From: an uncultured Chlorobiaceae bacterium | Lineage (GTDB): Bacteria; Bacteroidota; Ignavibacteria; UBA10030; SZUA-254 | Length of the DNA stretch: 64,000 bases | Direction: 5' to 3' | Assembly (NCBI GenBank): GCA_964596065.1 | Contig: CAZQSM010000002.1 | Span: 10,361-74,360 of the forward strand | In this document: in pieces, positions 51,285 through 61,434 of the stretch | Layout of the letters: the number at the start of each line of letters is the position of its first letter | How positions within the stretch are numbered: the first letter of the stretch is position 1 | The notes under the pieces: generated by a model | What the model was told of the DNA's origin: nothing | The model's input: only the letters and a program-made list of their open reading frames with translations | Database searches by the model: none | Position numbers and translations under genes: made by a program

Positions 51285-51635
51285 ATGATCATCGAAGAAA
51301 CCAGTGTCGGTGGCGTCGACGTGTTTCGGCTCAAGGGTGATTTCATCAGCGAACCCGACCAGACGAAATTCCAGCAGAAGGTCAGAGACCTCGTCCACGG
51401 GGGAGTCACCAGGCTGGTCGTGGACCTGCACGACGTCCATTACATCAACAGTTGCGGTATCGGTTCCCTCGTCGGGGCCCTGACGACCCTCCGCCGATCG
51501 GGCGGCGACATCCACCTCGCCGAAACCACGCGCGAGGTCAGGAGCGTCTTCGAAACCGCCCAGCTCGAACTGATATTTCATTTTCATTCCACCGTCCAGG
51601 ACGCCATCGGCGCCATCGGTCGGAAGACCCTTTAA
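51285..51635 (+). CDS. STAS-domain anti-sigma-factor antagonist (SpoIIAA/RsbV-like)
   Basis: 116 aa; LVVDLHDVHYINSCGIGSLVGA with the phosphorylatable Ser in the NSCG context typical of anti-anti-sigma factors. ATG at codon 131 of ORF 50895..; TTGACA hexamer about 55 nt upstream. Confidence 0.65.
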   Translation: MIIEETSVGGVDVFRLKGDFISEPDQTKFQQKVRDLVHGGVTRLVVDLHDVHYINSCGIGSLVGALTTLRRSGGDIHLAETTREVRSVFETAQLELIFHFHSTVQDAIGAIGRKTL

Positions 51636-51733: not shown

Positions 51734-52138
51734 ATGGAGAAAAAGTTCAGCAAGGATTTCGGTTCCCTCGACCGGATCGACGCGTTCGTCAGGTCGTTCG
51801 CGGCCGGACGCGGCCTCGACGAGGGCACCGTGTTCACGCTCAATTTCGTAATCGAGGAGATCTTCACCAACATGGTCAAGTACCAGCCCACCGCCGCGAA
51901 TGACGTCCTGATCGGACTCTCGATCGACGGCGGTTCGGTTACCGTCAAGATGGTCGACTACGGGGTGCGATACTTCGACCCGACGTCCGCTCCCCCGGTC
52001 GACACCGGGAAACCGCTCTCGGAGAGGCGCCCGGGCGGCCTCGGCGTCCACCTGGTGAAGCAGTACATGGACGACTTCAATTACGAGTATGTGGGTTCCG
52101 ACAGCATCATCACACTGACAAAAAAACTGAAGGTTTAG
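51734..52138 (+). CDS. anti-sigma regulatory factor, RsbW/SpoIIAB-like serine kinase (HATPase_c_2)
   Basis: 134 aa; NFVIEEIFTNMVKY (N-box) and GGLGVHLVKQYMDDFNY (G-box) of GHKL ATPases of the RsbW type. Confidence 0.6.
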   Translation: MEKKFSKDFGSLDRIDAFVRSFAAGRGLDEGTVFTLNFVIEEIFTNMVKYQPTAANDVLIGLSIDGGSVTVKMVDYGVRYFDPTSAPPVDTGKPLSERRPGGLGVHLVKQYMDDFNYEYVGSDSIITLTKKLKV

Positions 52139-52139
52139 C

Positions 52140-52424
52140 ATGTTCGACGCGACAATACCGGGGGAGGGACGGATCCTGCTCTCCGGACGATTTGATGCGG
52201 CCCAGGTCGAGAAGGCGAGGGCCGTCTTCGACCTGGTGAACGTCCATACGGTGGTGGATTTCGCCCAACTCGATTATATCTCGAGCGCCGGACTCGGGAT
52301 ACTCCTGATGACCCAACGGCGCCTGAAGGAGTCGGGGACCGGCCTGAAGCTGATCAACATGAACAAGCATATCAGGGACGTCTTCCAGTACGCGGGTTTC
52401 GACAAGATTTTTGAAATCGCTTGA
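52140..52424 (+). CDS. second STAS-domain anti-sigma-factor antagonist
   Basis: 94 aa; VDFAQLDYISSAGLGILL with the conserved Ser in the DxISSAG context. Starts 1 nt after the kinase stop. Confidence 0.6.
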   Translation: MFDATIPGEGRILLSGRFDAAQVEKARAVFDLVNVHTVVDFAQLDYISSAGLGILLMTQRRLKESGTGLKLINMNKHIRDVFQYAGFDKIFEIA

Positions 52425-52521
52425 AAAAAGTCCGTTATCCGGCCCGTTTTGGCATGTTTAAGCGCCCGGGAGGATGTTTCGGCGGAGATCCCAACTTTTT
52501 CCCTGATCGCCTGTACTTCCA

Positions 52522-53055
52522 ATGACCGAAGACCAGACACTGGTCCGGCGATACCTCGGCGGAGAGCGCGGGGCCTTCGAACCCCTGGTGGACCGGTACC
52601 AGAAGACGATCTACAATGTCGCGCTCCGGATGGCCCGCGATCCGGACGACGCCGCGGACATCACGCAAAACGTCTTCATCAAGGCGTCGGAAAAACTGGG
52701 GAGTTACGATCCGAAGTACAAGTTTTTCAGCTGGATCTACAGGATCGCGGTCAACGAGTCGCTGAATTTCGTCGGGTCGAAGCGGAGGAACGACGAATTG
52801 CCGGAGGACCTGGTCTCCGGCGAGGGCAATCCGGAAGAGATGCTCCAGGCGGGGATGCTTTCACACTCGGTCGAGGAAGGGCTCGCGAAACTGACCGACG
52901 ACAACCGGATCGTGATCATCCTCCGCCACTTCGAAGAGCTGTCGTACGACGAGATCGGCTTCATCCTCGACCTGCCCGTGAAAACGGTCAAATCGCGGCT
53001 CTTCACGGCGAGGCAATCACTGAAAAAAATTTTATTACAGAAATTCGAACAATGA
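52522..53055 (+). CDS. RNA polymerase sigma-70 factor, ECF subfamily
   Basis: Region 2 (YQKTIYNVALRMARDPDDAADITQNVFIKA) and region 4 HTH (LSYDEIGFILDLPVKTVKSRL). Confidence 0.85.
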   Translation: MTEDQTLVRRYLGGERGAFEPLVDRYQKTIYNVALRMARDPDDAADITQNVFIKASEKLGSYDPKYKFFSWIYRIAVNESLNFVGSKRRNDELPEDLVSGEGNPEEMLQAGMLSHSVEEGLAKLTDDNRIVIILRHFEELSYDEIGFILDLPVKTVKSRLFTARQSLKKILLQKFEQ

Positions 53056-54434
53056 AACCAACGGATTATCGGGAACTGGTCTACCGGGAACTCGACGGGG
53101 ACCTCACGCCGGAGGAGTCGGCGAAGCTCGGGGAGATGCTCGCCTCCGATCCGGAAGCGCGCATGTTCCACGACGAATGCCGCTCGATGTTCGCGATGCT
53201 GCGGGAAATCCCCAGGCGGGAGCCGTCGTCCCAGTTGAAGAAGAAGATCCTCAACAGCATTAAACCGCCGGCGCCCACTCGCCGGCATTCCATCATTCAC
53301 ACAATCACATCAACATTCACTTTTTCACAATATCAGGAGGTCGGTATGAAAAACAAGCTCATCATCGGCGGAGCGCTGGCCGCGGTCGCGGTCCTCTACT
53401 TCGCGGTTCTGTATCCCTGGCCGTCGGAATCCGAACTGTTCGGGACCATCGGCGGGGCCAAGAAATACCGTTCCGAGCAGATCGCCGACAAGGACGTCGT
53501 CCTGGAAGGGCAGGAAAACTCGACAGACGGTTCTTCGGGCGGATCGGCAAACGACGGCGGCCTCGGCCGCTCGGCGGAAGTCTTCCGCAGCGCGGACGTG
53601 CAGAAGCTCGCGGAGATCGCCCGCACCGCCGACGTGCAGAAGCTCGCGGAGATCGCCCGCACCGCCGACGTTCAAAAGCTGGCGGCGATCGCCCGCACGG
53701 CGGACTACTACCGCACGGCCGACGTCCAGAAGCTCGCGGAGATCGCGCGCACGGCCGACGTCCGGAAGTTCGCGGAGATCGCGCGCACGGCCGACGTCCA
53801 GAAACTCGCGGAGATCGCGCGCACGGCTGACGTCCAGAAGCTCGCGGATATCGCCCGCACGGCGGATTTCTACCGTACCGCGGACGTCCAGAAACTCGCG
53901 GCCATTGCCCGCACGGCTGATGTCCAGAAGCTGGCGGAGATCTCCCGCACCGCCGATGTCCAGAAAATGGCGGACATCGCGCGCACGGCCGACGTGCAGA
54001 AGCTTGCCGAGATCGCCCGCACGGCCGACGTGCAGAAGCTGGCCGAGATCGCCCGGACCGCGGACTTCTATCGCACGGCCGACGTGCAGAAGGTTGCCGA
54101 CATCGCCCGCACGGCGGATGTCCAGCGCATGGCGGACGTCGCCCGCACGGCGGATGTCCAGCGGATGACGGCCATCGCCCGCACGGCCGACGTGCAGAGG
54201 CTCGCCGACATCGCCCGCACCGCCGAGGTCTACCGCACGGCCGACGTGCAGAAGCTGGCGGAGATCGCGCGCACGGCGGATGTCCAGCGCATGGCGGACA
54301 TCGCCCGTACGGCGGACGTCCAGCGGATGACGGCCATTGCCCGCACGGCGGACCTTCAGAAGCTCGCGGAAATCGCGCGTACGACCGACATCCAGAAGAT
54401 GGCGGATATCGCCCGCTCCGCTTCCCACGAATAA
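53052..54434 (+). CDS. single-pass anti-sigma factor with tandem-repeat extracytoplasmic domain
   Basis: ATG overlaps the sigma-gene stop (ATGA). N-terminal 98 aa resemble an anti-sigma N-terminal domain (YRELDGDLTPEESAKL..FHDEC, degenerate zf-HC2). TM helix at residues 100-121. Residues 181-456 are 21 copies of ARTADVQKLAEI plus 4 AD(Y/F)YRT hexamers. Confidence 0.65.
   Translation: MKPTDYRELVYRELDGDLTPEESAKLGEMLASDPEARMFHDECRSMFAMLREIPRREPSSQLKKKILNSIKPPAPTRRHSIIHTITSTFTFSQYQEVGMKNKLIIGGALAAVAVLYFAVLYPWPSESELFGTIGGAKKYRSEQIADKDVVLEGQENSTDGSSGGSANDGGLGRSAEVFRSADVQKLAEIARTADVQKLAEIARTADVQKLAAIARTADYYRTADVQKLAEIARTADVRKFAEIARTADVQKLAEIARTADVQKLADIARTADFYRTADVQKLAAIARTADVQKLAEISRTADVQKMADIARTADVQKLAEIARTADVQKLAEIARTADFYRTADVQKVADIARTADVQRMADVARTADVQRMTAIARTADVQRLADIARTAEVYRTADVQKLAEIARTADVQRMADIARTADVQRMTAIARTADLQKLAEIARTTDIQKMADIARSASHE
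53592..54419 (+). repeat. in-frame 36-bp tandem repeat array (21 units) with four 18-bp punctuation units, coding ARTADVQKLAEI
   Basis: The period-36 repetition is directly visible in the sequence (gcccgcacggccgacgtgcagaagctcgcggagatc, etc.). Units differ mainly at synonymous third positions. Mirror ORFs on the minus strand are artefacts of the repeat. Confidence 0.9.
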
Positions 54435-54461
54435 CAGACGGCATCCCGACCGACGGTCGGA

Positions 54462-54492
54462 GGGGGGACGCCCGGCGTCCCCCCTTTTTTTT
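54462..54492 (+). terminator. rho-independent terminator downstream of the anti-sigma gene
   Basis: GGGGGGACG-cccgg-CGTCCCCCC stem-loop (9-10 bp G/C stem) immediately followed by T8. Lies 28 nt after the stop codon and only about 35 nt before the next ATG. Confidence 0.75.
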
Positions 54493-54527
54493 GCCCCCCT
54501 TTGGCATTTTTTTTAATATATTCACGA

Positions 54528-57534: not shown

Positions 57535-58560
57535 ATGAACATGGTTTCCGCCGACAGGCTCCTCGACATCGCGGTGAGCGTGCTCCCCGTGTTCCTCTTC
57601 CTCCTTGCCCTGGTGTTCCTCGACAGTTACAAGCTCGTGAAGGTCCACGAGGTGGCGGGGACCATCATCTTCGGGGCGCTCTCGGCGGTCGCGGCCCTCT
57701 TCCTGAACACGTTCATCGCCCAGTATGTGCCGAGGGGCATGCACATCATGCCCCGGTACGTCGGGCCGGTCACCGAGGAGGTCCTCAAGGCGGTGTTCGT
57801 GGTCTACCTCATCCGCAGCGGCAAGGTGGGGTTCATGGTGGACGCGGCGATCCACGGCTTCGCCGCCGGCGCCGGGTTCGCGTTCATGGAGAACGTCTAC
57901 TACCTCCAGACGGTCGGGGGGAGTTCCACCATGGTGGTATGGCTGATCCGCGGCTTCGGGACGGCCGTGATGCACGGCGGCACGGCGGCGATCATGGCGA
58001 TCATCGTGAAGAGCCTCGCCGACCGCTCCCCGTCGCCCCGGCTCTGGCACCTGGCCCCGGGCGCCGGCGCCGCGATGCTGCTCCATTCCTTTTTCAATCA
58101 TTTCCCCCTTCCGCCGCAGTTCATGACGGCGTTCCTGCTCGTCTCGCTGCCGCCGATCATGGTGTGGGTCTTCCACCGGAGCGAGAAGTCGACACGCGAG
58201 TGGCTCGGGGTCGGCTTCGACACCGATGCCACGCTCCTGGAAGCCGTGAACACCGGGGAGGTTTCCCGCACGAAGGTGGGGGAATACCTGGAGACCCTGA
58301 AGGCCAAGTTTCCGGGGGAGCTGGTCGCCGACATGCTCTGCATGCTGCGGATCCACCTGGAGCTCTCCATCCGGGCCAAGGGGGTCCTGCTGATGCGAGA
58401 GCACGGGTTCGAGTCGAAACCGGAGCCGGACACCGCGGAAAAGTTTTCGGAGCTGGACTATCTCGAGAAGAGCCTCGGCAAGACGGGGATGATGGCGATC
58501 AAGCCCTTCCTCCATACCACCTCCAGGGACCTGTGGCAGCTCTATTCGATCGGCCGATGA
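57535..58560 (+). CDS. prsW: PrsW-family intramembrane metalloprotease
   Basis: Polytopic; conserved PrsW blocks EExxK (VTEEVLKAV), FxxxH/FAFMEN (IHGFAAGAGFAFMENVYY) and HGGTAAIMA; long cytoplasmic C-terminal tail. Confidence 0.7.
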   Translation: MNMVSADRLLDIAVSVLPVFLFLLALVFLDSYKLVKVHEVAGTIIFGALSAVAALFLNTFIAQYVPRGMHIMPRYVGPVTEEVLKAVFVVYLIRSGKVGFMVDAAIHGFAAGAGFAFMENVYYLQTVGGSSTMVVWLIRGFGTAVMHGGTAAIMAIIVKSLADRSPSPRLWHLAPGAGAAMLLHSFFNHFPLPPQFMTAFLLVSLPPIMVWVFHRSEKSTREWLGVGFDTDATLLEAVNTGEVSRTKVGEYLETLKAKFPGELVADMLCMLRIHLELSIRAKGVLLMREHGFESKPEPDTAEKFSELDYLEKSLGKTGMMAIKPFLHTTSRDLWQLYSIGR

Positions 58561-59033
58561 CCGCGACGCGCGGAAGGGGGGCGTGGCCGGCGGTCACGGC
58601 CGCCGTGACGCTCTTCCTCCTCGCCTCCTGCGGGGCGCCCCCCGCGCCCGACTGGCGGAGCGAGGTGAGCGCACTCCTCACCGCCCAGGCCGCGGCGTGG
58701 AACCGCGGGGACATCGCCGGATACATGGACGGGTACTGGCGGTCGGACAGCCTCCTGTTCACCAGCGGCGGCTCGGTCAGGAGGGGGTGGTCGGAGACAT
58801 TCAAAAAGTACGCCGCGACCTACGATTCGCGTGAGAAAATGGGAACGCTCACCTTCTCCGGTCTGGAATTCCACCTCCCCGCCCCCGGCGCGGCGTGGGT
58901 CTTCGGCCGGTGGGAACTGGCCCGGGCCTCCGACGCGCCCGGCGGCGTGTTCACCGTCGTCCTCCGGCGCTTCCCCGAAGGATGGAAAATCGTCCACGAC
59001 CATACATCGTCCGACCCGGAACAACACCAGTGA
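58557..59033 (+). CDS. SnoaL-like / DUF4440 (NTF2-fold) lipoprotein
   Basis: ATG overlaps the prsW stop (ATGA). Lipobox LLASCG. LTAQAAAWNRGDIAGYMDGYWRSDSLLF...VFGRWEL...GWKIVHDHTS is typical of NTF2-like DUF4440. Confidence 0.5.
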   Translation: MTATRGRGAWPAVTAAVTLFLLASCGAPPAPDWRSEVSALLTAQAAAWNRGDIAGYMDGYWRSDSLLFTSGGSVRRGWSETFKKYAATYDSREKMGTLTFSGLEFHLPAPGAAWVFGRWELARASDAPGGVFTVVLRRFPEGWKIVHDHTSSDPEQHQ

Positions 59034-59041
59034 AAAGGACC

Positions 59042-59938
59042 ATGAACGCCGACGCCCTCTACCAGACCGACTTCCCGACCCTGAAGCTCGTACGACGCGG
59101 TAAGGTCCGCGACCTCTACGACCTCGGCGACCACCTGCTCATCGTCGCGACCGACCGGCTCTCGGCCTTCGACGTGGTGATGCCGCAGCCGATCCCGCTG
59201 AAGGGGAAGGTGCTGACGCAGATATCAAACTACTGGTTTTCGCTGATGACCGACATCATCCCGAACCACCTGGTGGCGACGTCGGTCGACGAATTCCCGG
59301 CGGAGTGCGCGCCCTACCTCGACCTGCTCAGGGGGCGGAGCATCCTGGCGAGGAAGACGACGCCCCTCCCGATCGAGTGCGTGGCCCGCGGGTACGTGTC
59401 GGGCTCCGGATGGATCGAGTACCGTGACGGCGGGAAGATCTGCGGGATCCCGCTCCCCCCGGGGCTGAAGGAGTCGGAACGGCTCCCCCGGACGCTCTTC
59501 ACCCCCGCCACGAAGGCGGAGGCCGGGCACGACGAAAATATTTCGTTCGAGACGGCGGCCGGGATCGTGGGAATCGAAACGGCGGAAGCCGCGCGAGCCA
59601 CCACCCTGAAGATCTACGAACGGGCCTCGGAGATCGCGCTCGACAGGGGGATCATCATCGCCGACACCAAGATGGAATTCGGGACCACCCGCGGCGGGCT
59701 GGTCCTGATCGACGAACTCCTCACGCCCGACTCCTCCCGCTTCTGGCCGAAGGGCCGTTACGCCCCGGGGCGGCCCCAGGAGAGTTACGACAAGCAATTC
59801 GTCCGGGACTACCTGCTGTCGATCGGCTTCAACCGTCAACCGCCGGGCCCGGCCCTCCCGCCCGACGTCATCGAACGGACGACCGACCTCTACCGGCAGG
59901 CGCTCATGCTCGTCACGGGGAAGGACGTGGAGGGGTAG
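59042..59938 (+). CDS. purC: phosphoribosylaminoimidazole-succinocarboxamide synthase (SAICAR synthetase)
   Basis: GKVRDLYDLGDHLLIVATDRLSAFD, IADTKMEFG, SRFWPKG are PurC signature blocks. Confidence 0.85.
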   Translation: MNADALYQTDFPTLKLVRRGKVRDLYDLGDHLLIVATDRLSAFDVVMPQPIPLKGKVLTQISNYWFSLMTDIIPNHLVATSVDEFPAECAPYLDLLRGRSILARKTTPLPIECVARGYVSGSGWIEYRDGGKICGIPLPPGLKESERLPRTLFTPATKAEAGHDENISFETAAGIVGIETAEAARATTLKIYERASEIALDRGIIIADTKMEFGTTRGGLVLIDELLTPDSSRFWPKGRYAPGRPQESYDKQFVRDYLLSIGFNRQPPGPALPPDVIERTTDLYRQALMLVTGKDVEG

Positions 59939-60087
59939 ACCGGGGGATTTTTCTCCCCCGCGGAATTTTCGTATAATGGTGAACAACCGCCATCCCGGCG
60001 CGTACACCCGTGGGCGCCGGGCCGTCACGTTTCCCGCGTTGCCGCTCACAATCAACGATTCCCAGTACAATGACATTGGAGGAGATT

Positions 60088-61434
60088 ATGTTCAGAGGCA
60101 TCAGTCTGGTCGTGATGACGCTGCTCGGGGGTTTCGCCCTGACGGCGCAGCAGGACGAGAGCAAGGTTTTTCCGTACCCGATCAACCAGGTCACGCTCGA
60201 CAACGGCCTGAAGATCGTTTCGATCCCGTTCGACAGCCCCGGGATCGTCGCCTTTTACACGGTGGTGAGGACCGGTTCGCGCAACGAGGTGGAGCCCGGC
60301 AAATCGGGCTTCGCCCATTTCTTCGAGCATATGATGTTCCGCGGGACGGAGAAATACGACAAGACCGCCTTTAACGAAATCCTCCAGTCGATCGGGGCCG
60401 ACAACAACGCGTTCACCTCCGACGACCAGACGGTCTATCATACGCTCGCGAGCGCCGACGCCCTCGAGACGATGATGGACATGGAGTCGGACCGGTTCAT
60501 GAACCTGAAGTACTCCGAGGAGGACTTCAAGACCGAGGCGGGCGCGATCCTCGGCGAATACAACAAGAACTATTCGAGCCCCTTCATGACCATCTTCGAG
60601 AAGATGCGCGAAGCGGCGTACGAGCAGCACACCTACAAGCACACCACGATGGGCTTCCTGAAGGACATCGAGGACATGCCGAACCAGTACCAGTACAGCC
60701 TGGAGTTCTTCGATCGCTGGTACCGGCCGGAGAACTGCGTGCTGGTGATCGTCGGGGATTTCGACCAGGAGAAGCTCGTGGCCCTGGCGAAGAAATATTA
60801 CGGTCCGTGGAAACGCGGGACCTACAAGCTCGACGTTCCGCTCGACGCTCCCCAGACGGCGGAGAAGCTGATCAACCTCCCCTGGAAGGCCAAGACGCTG
60901 CCGATCGTCGCCATCGGCTACCACGGGCCGGCGTTCAGCGACAATTCACGCGACATGCCGGCGATGGACCTCCTCTCGCAGCTCGTCTTCTCGCAGACGT
61001 CCGACCTTTTCCGCAAGCTGGTCATCGAACAGCAGCTGGTGGAGTTCGTGCAGGGCAGCCAACCGGACAGCAGGGACCCGGGCCTCTTCACCATCTTCGC
61101 GCGGGTGAAGGACCCGAAGAACATCGACCTGGTCCGCGAGGAGATCGAGAAGGCGATCGCGGACGCGATGGTGACGCCGGTGTCGGCGGAGCGGCTGAAG
61201 GACATCAAATCGCACCTGAAATACCAGTACGCGATGGGGCTCGACAACCCGAACTCGGTGGCGAACAGCATCAGCCATTACATCCAGCTCACGGGCGACC
61301 CCGAATCGGTGAACAGGGTCTACCGGCTCTACGACCAGATCACGCCCGCGGACATCCAGGCCGCGGCGAAGAAATATCTCACCAGGACCAACAGGACCAC
61401 GGTCATTCTCAAGCAGGAGGAGAGCTCACAATGA
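60088..61434 (+). CDS. M16-family (pitrilysin-like) zinc peptidase, catalytic subunit
   Basis: Signal peptide; inverted zinc motif HFFEHMMFRGT (HxxEH) plus downstream E; GGAGG ribosome-binding site. Confidence 0.8.
   Translation: MFRGISLVVMTLLGGFALTAQQDESKVFPYPINQVTLDNGLKIVSIPFDSPGIVAFYTVVRTGSRNEVEPGKSGFAHFFEHMMFRGTEKYDKTAFNEILQSIGADNNAFTSDDQTVYHTLASADALETMMDMESDRFMNLKYSEEDFKTEAGAILGEYNKNYSSPFMTIFEKMREAAYEQHTYKHTTMGFLKDIEDMPNQYQYSLEFFDRWYRPENCVLVIVGDFDQEKLVALAKKYYGPWKRGTYKLDVPLDAPQTAEKLINLPWKAKTLPIVAIGYHGPAFSDNSRDMPAMDLLSQLVFSQTSDLFRKLVIEQQLVEFVQGSQPDSRDPGLFTIFARVKDPKNIDLVREEIEKAIADAMVTPVSAERLKDIKSHLKYQYAMGLDNPNSVANSISHYIQLTGDPESVNRVYRLYDQITPADIQAAAKKYLTRTNRTTVILKQEESSQ

Follow-up and report, generated by a model that had tools for sequence, protein, structure and literature searches.

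What does a long tandem repeat do on the outer side of an anti-sigma factor, and where did it come from? The question is raised by the gene at 53052-54434 (+) in a 64,000-nucleotide stretch (the window) of contig CAZQSM010000002.1, from an uncultured Chlorobiaceae bacterium. The gene is a stop-free open reading frame (ORF) of 460 aa and comprises an anti-sigma domain (ASD), a transmembrane (TM) helix, a juxtamembrane motif and a helical repeat array. It probably encodes a single-pass RsiW-type anti-sigma factor for a co-translated SigW/RpoE-like sigma factor, with a sensor array captured from a neighbouring gene and a PrsW-type switch. Neither the repeat class nor the anti-sigma logic is new. 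The new features are the homogenised long periplasmic array of MgtE_N type, the capture of a neighbour gene with its start signals retained, the GTIGG family to which the captured gene belongs, and the triad formed with an Omp85/TolB/gluzincin protein and PrsW. A literature search found no paper on any of these four. The locus offers a handle on an uncharacterised envelope module that is widespread among diderm bacteria of the FCB group and nearby lineages. It also offers a case in which an anti-sigma factor would have gained its sensor domain by in-frame capture of a neighbouring target gene.

The gene directly upstream encodes a sigma factor of the extracytoplasmic function (ECF) type. Its product exceeds the cut-off of the TIGR02937 sigma70-ECF model with 109.5 bits, and scores 118.9 bits on the SigW model and 120.6 bits on the RpoE model, both under the equivalog cut-offs. 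The two genes share the sequence ATGA at 53052-53055, where the start of the fused ORF overlaps the sigma TGA by 4 nt. A profile of 18 family ASDs compared with the PDB finds Bacillus subtilis RsiW (5WUQ) as the best match, with an E-value of 3e-6 over residues 5-75, followed by RskA at 0.002. NCBIfam anti-sigma models match the window protein with E-values of 2.5e-5 and 1e-4, under cut-off. The curated anti-sigma cut-offs are not reached by NF052375 (24.4 bits, cut-off 100) or PRK13920 (22 bits, cut-off 225), and zf-HC2 gives 15.6 bits on the ASD against a cut-off of 22.2. The zinc-binding anti-sigma (ZAS) motif HxxxCxxC is absent, and the corresponding FHDECRSMF has only H40 and C43. AlphaFold2 (AF2) predicts four helices in residues 1-78, with a block-mean pLDDT (predicted local distance difference test) of 61-80 over residues 1-50 and of about 41-44 by helix 4. 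An AF2 helix at residues 100-120 agrees with the TM segment, and the lysines before this segment and the acidic residues after it place the repeat outside the cytoplasm. The RsiW-like N-terminal domain, the one TM helix and the translational coupling to the ECF sigma gene bear out the description given by an earlier, sequence-only reading, in which the protein is an anti-sigma factor and its extracytoplasmic part is a repeat array.

The origin of the array is indicated by its relatives. A scan of a genome collection with the invariant peptide that follows the TM helix (TIGGAKKY / EQ[IM][TA][DE]KDV) gives 28 loci, mostly from metagenome-assembled genomes (MAGs) of Ignavibacteria/Bacteroidota, and also from Zixibacteria, Acidobacteriota, Aminicenantes and Chrysiogenales. 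KSB1 and Gemmatimonadota loci were added later, so that 33 loci (numbered with L below) were compared altogether. An exhaustive search with the juxtamembrane motif gives 165 representatives. In the loci of the scan and in those from KSB1 and Gemmatimonadota, a TM helix and the motif are always followed by an alanine-rich helical region, which is mostly a tandem array with a unit that varies by lineage. There are 12-residue units (ADIARTADVQRL, ADLYRSLTMEKQ, LPVEKQAEYFRS, MPVDAQASLFQK and LEKMPVLERAQT), 9-residue units (AEVRDALAS, NDAFRAALA and KDAAFQELL), a 10-residue unit (LLNKALENxA) and an 8-residue unit (VIPALEKQ). The array length varies four-fold across the family, from about 250 to about 1060 aa. 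The G, T, G, Q and V of the juxtamembrane motif are invariant in 20 diverse members. The window protein fits this TM-GTIGG-array family, having the TM helix, G-T-I-G-G-x(2-6)-K-Y-R-x-E-Q-x(3)-K-D-V, a helical repeat region, and an Omp85/TolB/gluzincin gene directly downstream. Judged by sequence, the TM helix, the invariant GTIGGAKKYRSEQ..KDV motif and the helical array constitute a distinct conserved gene. Across the 33 loci, it always sits upstream of a gene for an outer-membrane protein of about 1000 aa and a gene for a PrsW-family protease. A complete Gemmatimonadota genome has the triad of array protein (1135 aa), outer-membrane protein and PrsW without a sigma gene, which suggests that the triad is the core and the sigma/anti-sigma pair an add-on.

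The family has a split form and a fused form. The split loci are L008, L009, L013, L018, L019, L023, L026 and the KSB1 locus L033, where the anti-sigma protein carries a TM helix of its own followed by a beta-rich ectodomain (about 130 aa), and the array protein is encoded by the next, separate gene. In the fused loci (n=11: the window, L001, L003-L007, L010-L012 and L016), the ASD runs straight into the array protein. The fused arrays are of the 12-mer type in the window, L003-L007 and L010, of a degenerate 12-residue type in L001, and of the 9-mer type in L011/12 and L016. The in-frame fusion in the window lineage appears to have replaced the TM helix and beta-rich ectodomain of the anti-sigma factor. 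No stop codon lies between the ASD and the TM helix in the window ORF or in the 10 other fused orthologues. The linker from the ASD to Met99 (RHSIIHTI.S.FTFS) is kept as protein within the clade, which argues that the fusion protein is real too. The earlier caveat that two genes might be present was nevertheless apt, since the array is a separate gene in many relatives and the window ORF retains its ribosome-binding site and ATG internally. In the separate anti-sigma ORFs of L008, L009, L013, L014, L017, L018, L019, L023 and L026, the TM helix is followed after about 10-15 residues by the element G-[TS]-[IVLM], which is similar to the first residues of the GTIGG motif and may, together with it, mark a shared recognition site.

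The internal start signals consist of a Shine-Dalgarno sequence and the codon for Met99. The pattern nnG GAG Gnn nnn ATG is kept in all 11 fused genes although it encodes different residues (Q/S/K/W-E-V/A/G), which shows conservation at the nucleotide level. Every array gene, stand-alone or fused, has GGAGG 6-8 nt ahead of the ATG before the TM helix. A strong Shine-Dalgarno sequence thus precedes the start of the array gene, internal or stand-alone, in every case, in contrast to the leaderless mRNAs suggested below for the sigma and outer-membrane-protein genes. Since the signals of the captured gene are retained, a second product is likely, and initiation at Met99 probably yields a protein of 362 aa without the ASD. 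The gene would then have a one-gene, two-product arrangement. Neither the 460-aa nor the 362-aa product has an exact match in a collection of 15 billion proteins, in which the sigma and outer-membrane proteins from the same 99-kb NCBI contig do occur. The gene at 53052-54434 may have been called otherwise or dropped by annotators. A word-indexed protein search with the full 460-aa protein gives 2 matches only, a PDB sequence search with the window protein gives only noise (e.g., Cre recombinase, E-value 0.14), and a PDB search with P0002 returns nothing.

The transcription signals are consistent with control of the array gene by the sigma factor. The promoter-like motif CAACTTT-N12-CTGTA has its sole match in the 64 kb ahead of the sigma gene, with 0 expected, and a motif of this kind occurs at the equivalent sigma position in 14 related loci. 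The Acidobacteriota variant is AACC-N16-CGTT. Split loci have a second copy about 60-75 nt upstream of the stand-alone array genes. This separate copy and the ECF-promoter form of the motif suggest autoregulation, with the array gene as a sigma target. The distance of 6 nt to the sigma ATG points to a leaderless or near-leaderless mRNA. A conserved AATATATTCAC lies about 5 nt before the ATG of the outer-membrane-protein gene (window 54505-54527), and the position of both elements (CTGTA and AATATATTCAC) about 5-6 nt from an ATG suggests leaderless mRNAs for the two genes. Hairpins like the one after the fused ORF follow the array gene in L001, L003, L004, L005, L007, L008, L011, L012 and L016. 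The hairpin and the AATATATTCAC element indicate that the outer-membrane-protein gene is probably transcribed separately.

The array consists of 47 hexapeptides of the form [IVFY]-x-[RK]-[TLM]-A-[DE] without a phase break, in which VQKLAE alternates with IARTAD. It comprises 21 twelve-residue VQKLAE-IARTAD units and 5 extra hexapeptides of xYRTAD type, one of which (VFRSAD) stands at the array start and the others after units 3, 7, 12 and 16. Tandem Repeats Finder (TRF) reports a period of 36 and its multiples. The sequence-only reading had given a 36-bp repeat over 828 nt, which is correct (21x36 + 4x18 = 828), and had placed spacers after units 3, 7, 12 and 16, to which the one at the start is added. 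These spacers are no foreign hexamers but extra copies of the half-unit of the array itself (xxRTAD). In the sister lineages L004/5/7, the half-unit regularly takes the aromatic form (xFRSAD / xYRSLT), which suggests that the window lineage expanded the I-A variant and kept the aromatic ones at block boundaries. The mean pairwise identity between units is 78.5% for DNA and 78% for protein. The units are thus less alike than the near-identical peptides with synonymous differences first described. The inference of selection drawn from those differences stands, as the proportion of synonymous differences (pS) is 0.48 and that of non-synonymous differences (pN) is 0.12. The pN/pS of 0.26, a four-fold excess of synonymous divergence, indicates purifying selection on the peptide.

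The array is no unknown sort of sequence and appears to be a homogenised MgtE_N/ARM-like 12-residue helix-turn repeat. The 12-residue arrays of relatives match MgtE_N (PF03448, Pfam gathering threshold 25.9 bits) with 133.3 bits in L008, 102.7 in L010, 70.8 in L004, whose protein is orthologous to that of the window with 51% identity, and 67.3 in L013. The best Pfam match of the window array is LED_rpt (PF20854, threshold 59 bits), and the 63%-identical orthologue in L003 passes this model with 60.3 bits. The window array matches that of L008 with a phmmer E-value of 6e-27 at zero bias, and those of L004/5/7 with 1e-37 to 1e-46. The units of L008 align gap-free with four 12-residue repeats of the MgtE N domain (2YVY; MgtE residues 55-111). 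MgtE_N is described as a right-handed ARM-like superhelix of short helices, is related to FliG, and is used in the periplasm by the E-ring proteins MotE, FlbB and FlgY (PMC13023049, PMC11870540). By alignment with L008 and MgtE, the window array would be made of about 21 amphipathic helices of ten residues each, with turns of two residues between them (D-VQKLAEIAR-TA), and the spacers can be read as extra half-units, D-FYR-TA.

The array is similar to the MgtE_N/FliG repeat (PF03448; MgtE 2YVX) in its 12-residue helix-turn period. In contrast, MgtE_N is cytoplasmic and has about 10 helices with non-identical units, while the family arrays are periplasmic and have 21-26 near-identical units. 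MotE, FlbB and FlgY (COG3334) likewise have an N-terminal signal peptide or TM helix, then a periplasmic helical region and a docking head of MgtE_N type (PMC13023049, PMC11870540). These proteins have a single four-helix head after a long helix, flagellar gene clusters and TPR partners, whereas the window protein has 21+ units and the GTIGG motif, and its neighbours are sigma, outer-membrane-protein and PrsW genes and no flagellar genes. With this family, the repeat seen in MgtE, FliG and the flagellar E-ring proteins is extended to periplasmic arrays that are long and homogenised, which is of use for annotation and for the study of concerted evolution in structural repeats. Literature searches on the LED repeat, on tandem-repeat anti-sigma factors, on MgtE_N in anti-sigma factors and on PrsW with Omp85 found nothing specific.

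The most likely role of the locus is a SigW/RsiW/PrsW-type proteolytic switch in a diderm bacterium, with the helical array as the sensor arm. In B. subtilis, PrsW carries out the site-1 cleavage of the anti-sigma factor RsiW (PMC3498285). The window resembles that system in the co-transcribed ECF sigma factor and single-pass anti-sigma factor, the N-terminal domain closest to RsiW 5WUQ, the PrsW-family gene with intact motifs, and the score of the sigma factor on the SigW model. Unlike RsiW, the window anti-sigma factor lacks HxxxCxxC and has a helical repeat array as its ectodomain. Unlike the B. subtilis SigW system, PrsW lies in the same cluster, together with the Omp85/TolB/gluzincin protein and the RsbW/RsbV-like genes; the host is a diderm. 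The array would reach into the periplasm as a superhelix on which the periplasmic parts of the outer-membrane protein, its propeller and gluzincin domains, could dock. Once an envelope signal arrives, the ectodomain would be cut by the PrsW-like protease at or beyond the juxtamembrane motif, possibly with the help of the gluzincin domain. Intramembrane proteolysis would then free the sigma factor, which would act on the promoter at 52492-52515 and so re-induce its own operon. The PrsW-like protease might recognise the juxtamembrane motif, which is the foremost candidate for this role, although at the level of a guess. The earlier idea of a protease-susceptible array gains support from the two conserved protease genes that adjoin it.

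In FecR-type trans-envelope signalling, an anti-sigma factor contacts an outer-membrane transducer. The likeness to the window is one of logic only, as an inner-membrane anti-sigma factor has a beta-barrel protein of the outer membrane as its gene neighbour, and the ectodomain could meet the periplasmic domains of that barrel protein. In contrast, the barrel is Omp85-like and not TonB-dependent, and the FecR domain, TonB box and signalling domain are lacking.

Several points weigh against the proteolytic switch with a superhelical sensor arm. PrsW of B. subtilis cuts RsiW far from the membrane, and cleavage at the juxtamembrane motif is a guess. The terminator between the array and outer-membrane-protein genes excludes simple co-expression. 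The RsbW/RsbV-like genes suggest an extra or alternative control of the sigma factor that the model leaves unaccounted for. The window array itself is under the Pfam thresholds, with 19 bits (E-value 0.002) for MgtE_N and 36.6 bits for LED_rpt. The AF2 model of the 460-aa protein, made from a three-sequence alignment, has a mean pLDDT of 37 and a predicted template modelling score (pTM) of 0.18, and shows the array as long continuous helices broken only at two spacers. This model of the array is unreliable, so the superhelix fold is taken from homology. The period of 12 is confirmed by TRF and the hydrophobic moment, and the right-handed superhelix is unreadable from a model of pLDDT 37. The relatives with 8-, 9- and 10-residue units have no MgtE_N match, and one of them matches STI1/HOP DP. 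The family may therefore share short amphipathic helices only and include more than one kind of repeat. The arrays of L020 (785-2623) and L011/L012 have 9- to 12-residue units of DP type that match STI1/HOP DP, with 79.9 bits in L020, and not MgtE_N.

Stand-alone array genes with an ECF-type promoter of their own are also what would be expected if the array protein were chiefly an output of the sigma factor. It would then be a scaffold, chaperone or partner of the Omp85/TolB/gluzincin protein and no sensor, the fusion would merely anchor the ASD, and the signal would enter elsewhere, e.g., through the RsbW/RsbV-like genes. The Gemmatimonadota triad without a sigma or anti-sigma gene and the RsbW-like and STAS genes conserved upstream agree with such a role, and the periplasmic MgtE_N protein MotE stabilises its partner protein (PMC13023049). 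The ASD, however, is fused to clearly different types of array, which suggests a functional link to sigma control. The triad includes PrsW, the classical site-1 protease of anti-sigma factors, and the anti-sigma factors of split loci have a similar G-T-[IVL] element after the TM helix. A role as output without sensing is considered unlikely.

A bolder and decidedly doubtful proposal makes the array a consumable substrate of a trans-envelope proteolytic machine that comprises the array protein, the Omp85/propeller/gluzincin barrel and PrsW. Units would be removed singly or released as 12-residue peptides, so that the array would act as a fuse or counter grading the release of the sigma factor. 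The Met99 isoform would be a sigma-induced decoy that resets it.

The sensor arm proposed for the PrsW-type switch is a solenoid of short helices, and the array could instead be one long continuous alpha-helix or coiled coil that spans the periplasm as a rod or molecular ruler. AF2 draws helices at residues 173-272, 280-338 and 346-459, at a pLDDT of about 30, and the composition strongly favours helix, without proline or glycine. In contrast, the hydrophobic-moment spectrum of the window array has its main peak at 120 degrees (period 3.0 residues, power 930) and its next at 93 degrees (power 66), and is almost nil near 100. Peaks in the family follow the unit, at 120 degrees for 12-mers, 80 for 9-mers and 72 for 10-mers, and are never near 100. 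A coiled-coil or hendecad periodicity (3.5-3.67 residues, about 98-103 degrees), which had been proposed as a check, is thus absent. This excludes a single amphipathic seam on one continuous helix, which is impossible for units of 12, 9 or 10 residues, and is the pattern expected of a short-helix solenoid. A proline or N-cap residue stands at a fixed point of every unit in relatives, and L008, L010, L032 and L033 have a proline in every unit. The homology to MgtE_N and the four-fold variation in array length also oppose a rod, and the family range of lengths makes the fixed-length molecular ruler of the sequence-only reading unlikely. The continuous helix is accordingly very improbable.

The array could also be a recent or unstable expansion of DNA, either a contingency locus or an artefact of assembly. 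Database homologues are often truncated at the array, and the unit number differs between the window (21) and L003, from another MAG (18). This difference lies in the membrane-proximal half, where the window counts 12 units with two internal spacers and L003 counts 9 units with one spacer. In contrast, the 19 hexapeptides at the C-terminal end follow those of L003 unit by unit in colinear order, and both share position-specific variants, namely KVAD behind a spacer, IARTAE ahead of the last spacer, IARTTD, and a terminal IARSAS. The longest exact internal DNA repeat is 41 nt. This short repeat and the colinearity with L003 make an assembly collapse or expansion unlikely. The unit identity of 78.5% in DNA and the pN/pS are also those of an older array. 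The view that the repeat is no recent DNA expansion is consequently upheld, while the length-variable contingency element raised beside it is not, half of the array being colinear with an orthologue. The copy number appears to shift between species in an old array that is no hypervariable tract, and an expansion of recent date is extremely unlikely. A metagenome scan for close relatives with copy-number polymorphism found one partial locus, L031, and a protein search with the juxtamembrane profile found short truncated fragments only. The contig of L031 opens inside a related array (1-1700, ADIFRTADIQ(K/R)(Q/V) units), which is followed by an ORF of 356 aa, transposase-like by eye, in place of the outer-membrane-protein gene. 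The truncation of many database homologues at the array, together with L031, indicates that such arrays break short-read assemblies.

A left-handed beta-helix of hexapeptide repeats would suit the 47 hexapeptides in phase, the fit of IARTAD to [LIV]-[GAED]-X2-[STAV]-X and the weak NCBIfam matches to LpxA (34 bits), LpxD and NeuD, but it is scarcely credible given the LpxA cut-off of 226 bits, the lack of glycine and asparagine in an array with 24% alanine and much K, R, E, Q and L, the all-helix AF2 model, orthologues that match all-helical MgtE_N with up to 133 bits, and relatives with 8-, 9- and 10-residue units incompatible with a hexapeptide helix. The evidence above led to the rejection of four readings, namely a left-handed beta-helix, a continuous coiled coil, a contingency locus and an assembly artefact.

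Table 1. Features of the locus, with positions in the window.
Feature	Position	Strand	Basis or remark
STAS-domain protein (anti-anti-sigma-like), first of two	51285-51635	+	Pfam STAS 56.8 bits; conserved in L003-L007
RsbW-like anti-sigma kinase-type protein (HATPase_c_2)	51734-52138	+	PF13581 63.3 bits; same position in most loci
STAS-domain protein (RsbV-like), second copy	52140-52424	+	STAS_2 47.7 bits; conserved
ECF-type promoter-like motif CAACTTT-N12-CTGTA	52492-52515	+	Ends 6 nt ahead of sigma ATG
ECF sigma factor (RpoE/SigW-like)	52522-53055	+	Sigma70_r2 and Sigma70_r4_2
Whole fused ORF	53052-54434	+	ASD, TM helix, juxtamembrane motif and helical array
Class I ASD, RsiW-like, without zinc motif (aa 1-78)	53052-53285	+	Profile against PDB
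Internal Shine-Dalgarno AGGAGG (53335-53340) and ATG (53346-53348, Met99)	53335-53348	+	Just before TM helix
Predicted single TM helix (aa 101-123, KLIIGGALAAVAVLYFAVLYPWP), N-in/C-out	53352-53420	+	Read from sequence; conserved in family alignment
Invariant juxtamembrane motif GTIGGAKKYRSEQIADKDVVL, family hallmark	53442-53504	+	Invariant in family alignment
Gly/Ser/Asp-rich linker (aa 152-176)	53505-53579	+	Read from sequence; predicted non-helical (AF2)
Array of 47 hexapeptides (aa 177-458), MgtE_N/LED-type helix-turn repeat	53580-54425	+	Parse and TRF
Intrinsic terminator-like hairpin, 13 bp stem, 9 GC pairs, T-run	54459-54495	+	Directly after ORF
Outer-membrane protein of about 1000 aa	54528-57509	+	Signal peptide, gluzincin-like domain, six-bladed TolB-like propeller, Omp85/BamA-like barrel
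PrsW-family intramembrane metalloprotease	57535-58560	+	PF13367 76.6 bits; EExxK, FxxxE and HxxxN present

The conserved gene order is (STAS), RsbW-like HATPase_c_2, STAS, ECF sigma factor, anti-sigma factor, array protein, the protein of about 1000 aa, and PrsW-family protease. The synteny of the RsbW-like, STAS, sigma, (anti-sigma), array and outer-membrane-protein genes is kept in 25+ loci. Partner-switching genes beside an ECF sigma factor with a membrane anti-sigma factor are an unusual arrangement. The array gene forms the triad in Ignavibacteria, KSB1, Zixibacteria, Acidobacteriota, Gemmatimonadota and other lineages. The Gemmatimonadota member (L032, 2426-5833 of CP070758.1) is a protein of 1135 aa with more than 100 eight-residue VIPALE(K/R)Q units, which are broken regularly by a segment of about 40 residues, ALENLVKEFDGFKKQ...EHMAAEL.TLDKQ, and no sigma or anti-sigma gene is nearby.

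The outer-membrane protein has an AlphaFold model with a pLDDT of 86.6 and a pTM of 0.85, which is confident and in which a signal peptide and a mixed helical domain precede the six-bladed propeller and a large barrel. Its gluzincin-like domain has an invariant HExxH and an equally invariant downstream glutamate, H142-E143-x-x-H146 ... E196 (numbered from the ORF start at 54501). The protein weakly matches M1 aminopeptidases, and its homologues weakly match Peptidase_MA_2. More than 4288 homologues are found, with 53-57% identity even in other phyla, and none of them bears a functional name, their labels being hypothetical or a generic PD40/beta-propeller. This combination of domains is found in no solved structure. 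If the protein is oriented like Omp85 proteins, its N-terminal domains should lie on the periplasmic side. In every locus examined, the array protein accompanies it, and so does PrsW wherever the downstream sequence sufficed. The PrsW gene starts 25 nt past the outer-membrane-protein gene and encodes an extra C-terminal region of about 130 aa outside the Pfam model. It is kept downstream of the outer-membrane protein in 15 loci and in those of KSB1 and Gemmatimonadota. The cluster is followed by a SAICAR synthetase gene (58895-59938, 245 bits) and an M16-family peptidase gene (60010-61434, Peptidase_M16 and M16_C). The M16 gene also recurs close to the cluster in L026, L005 and L007.

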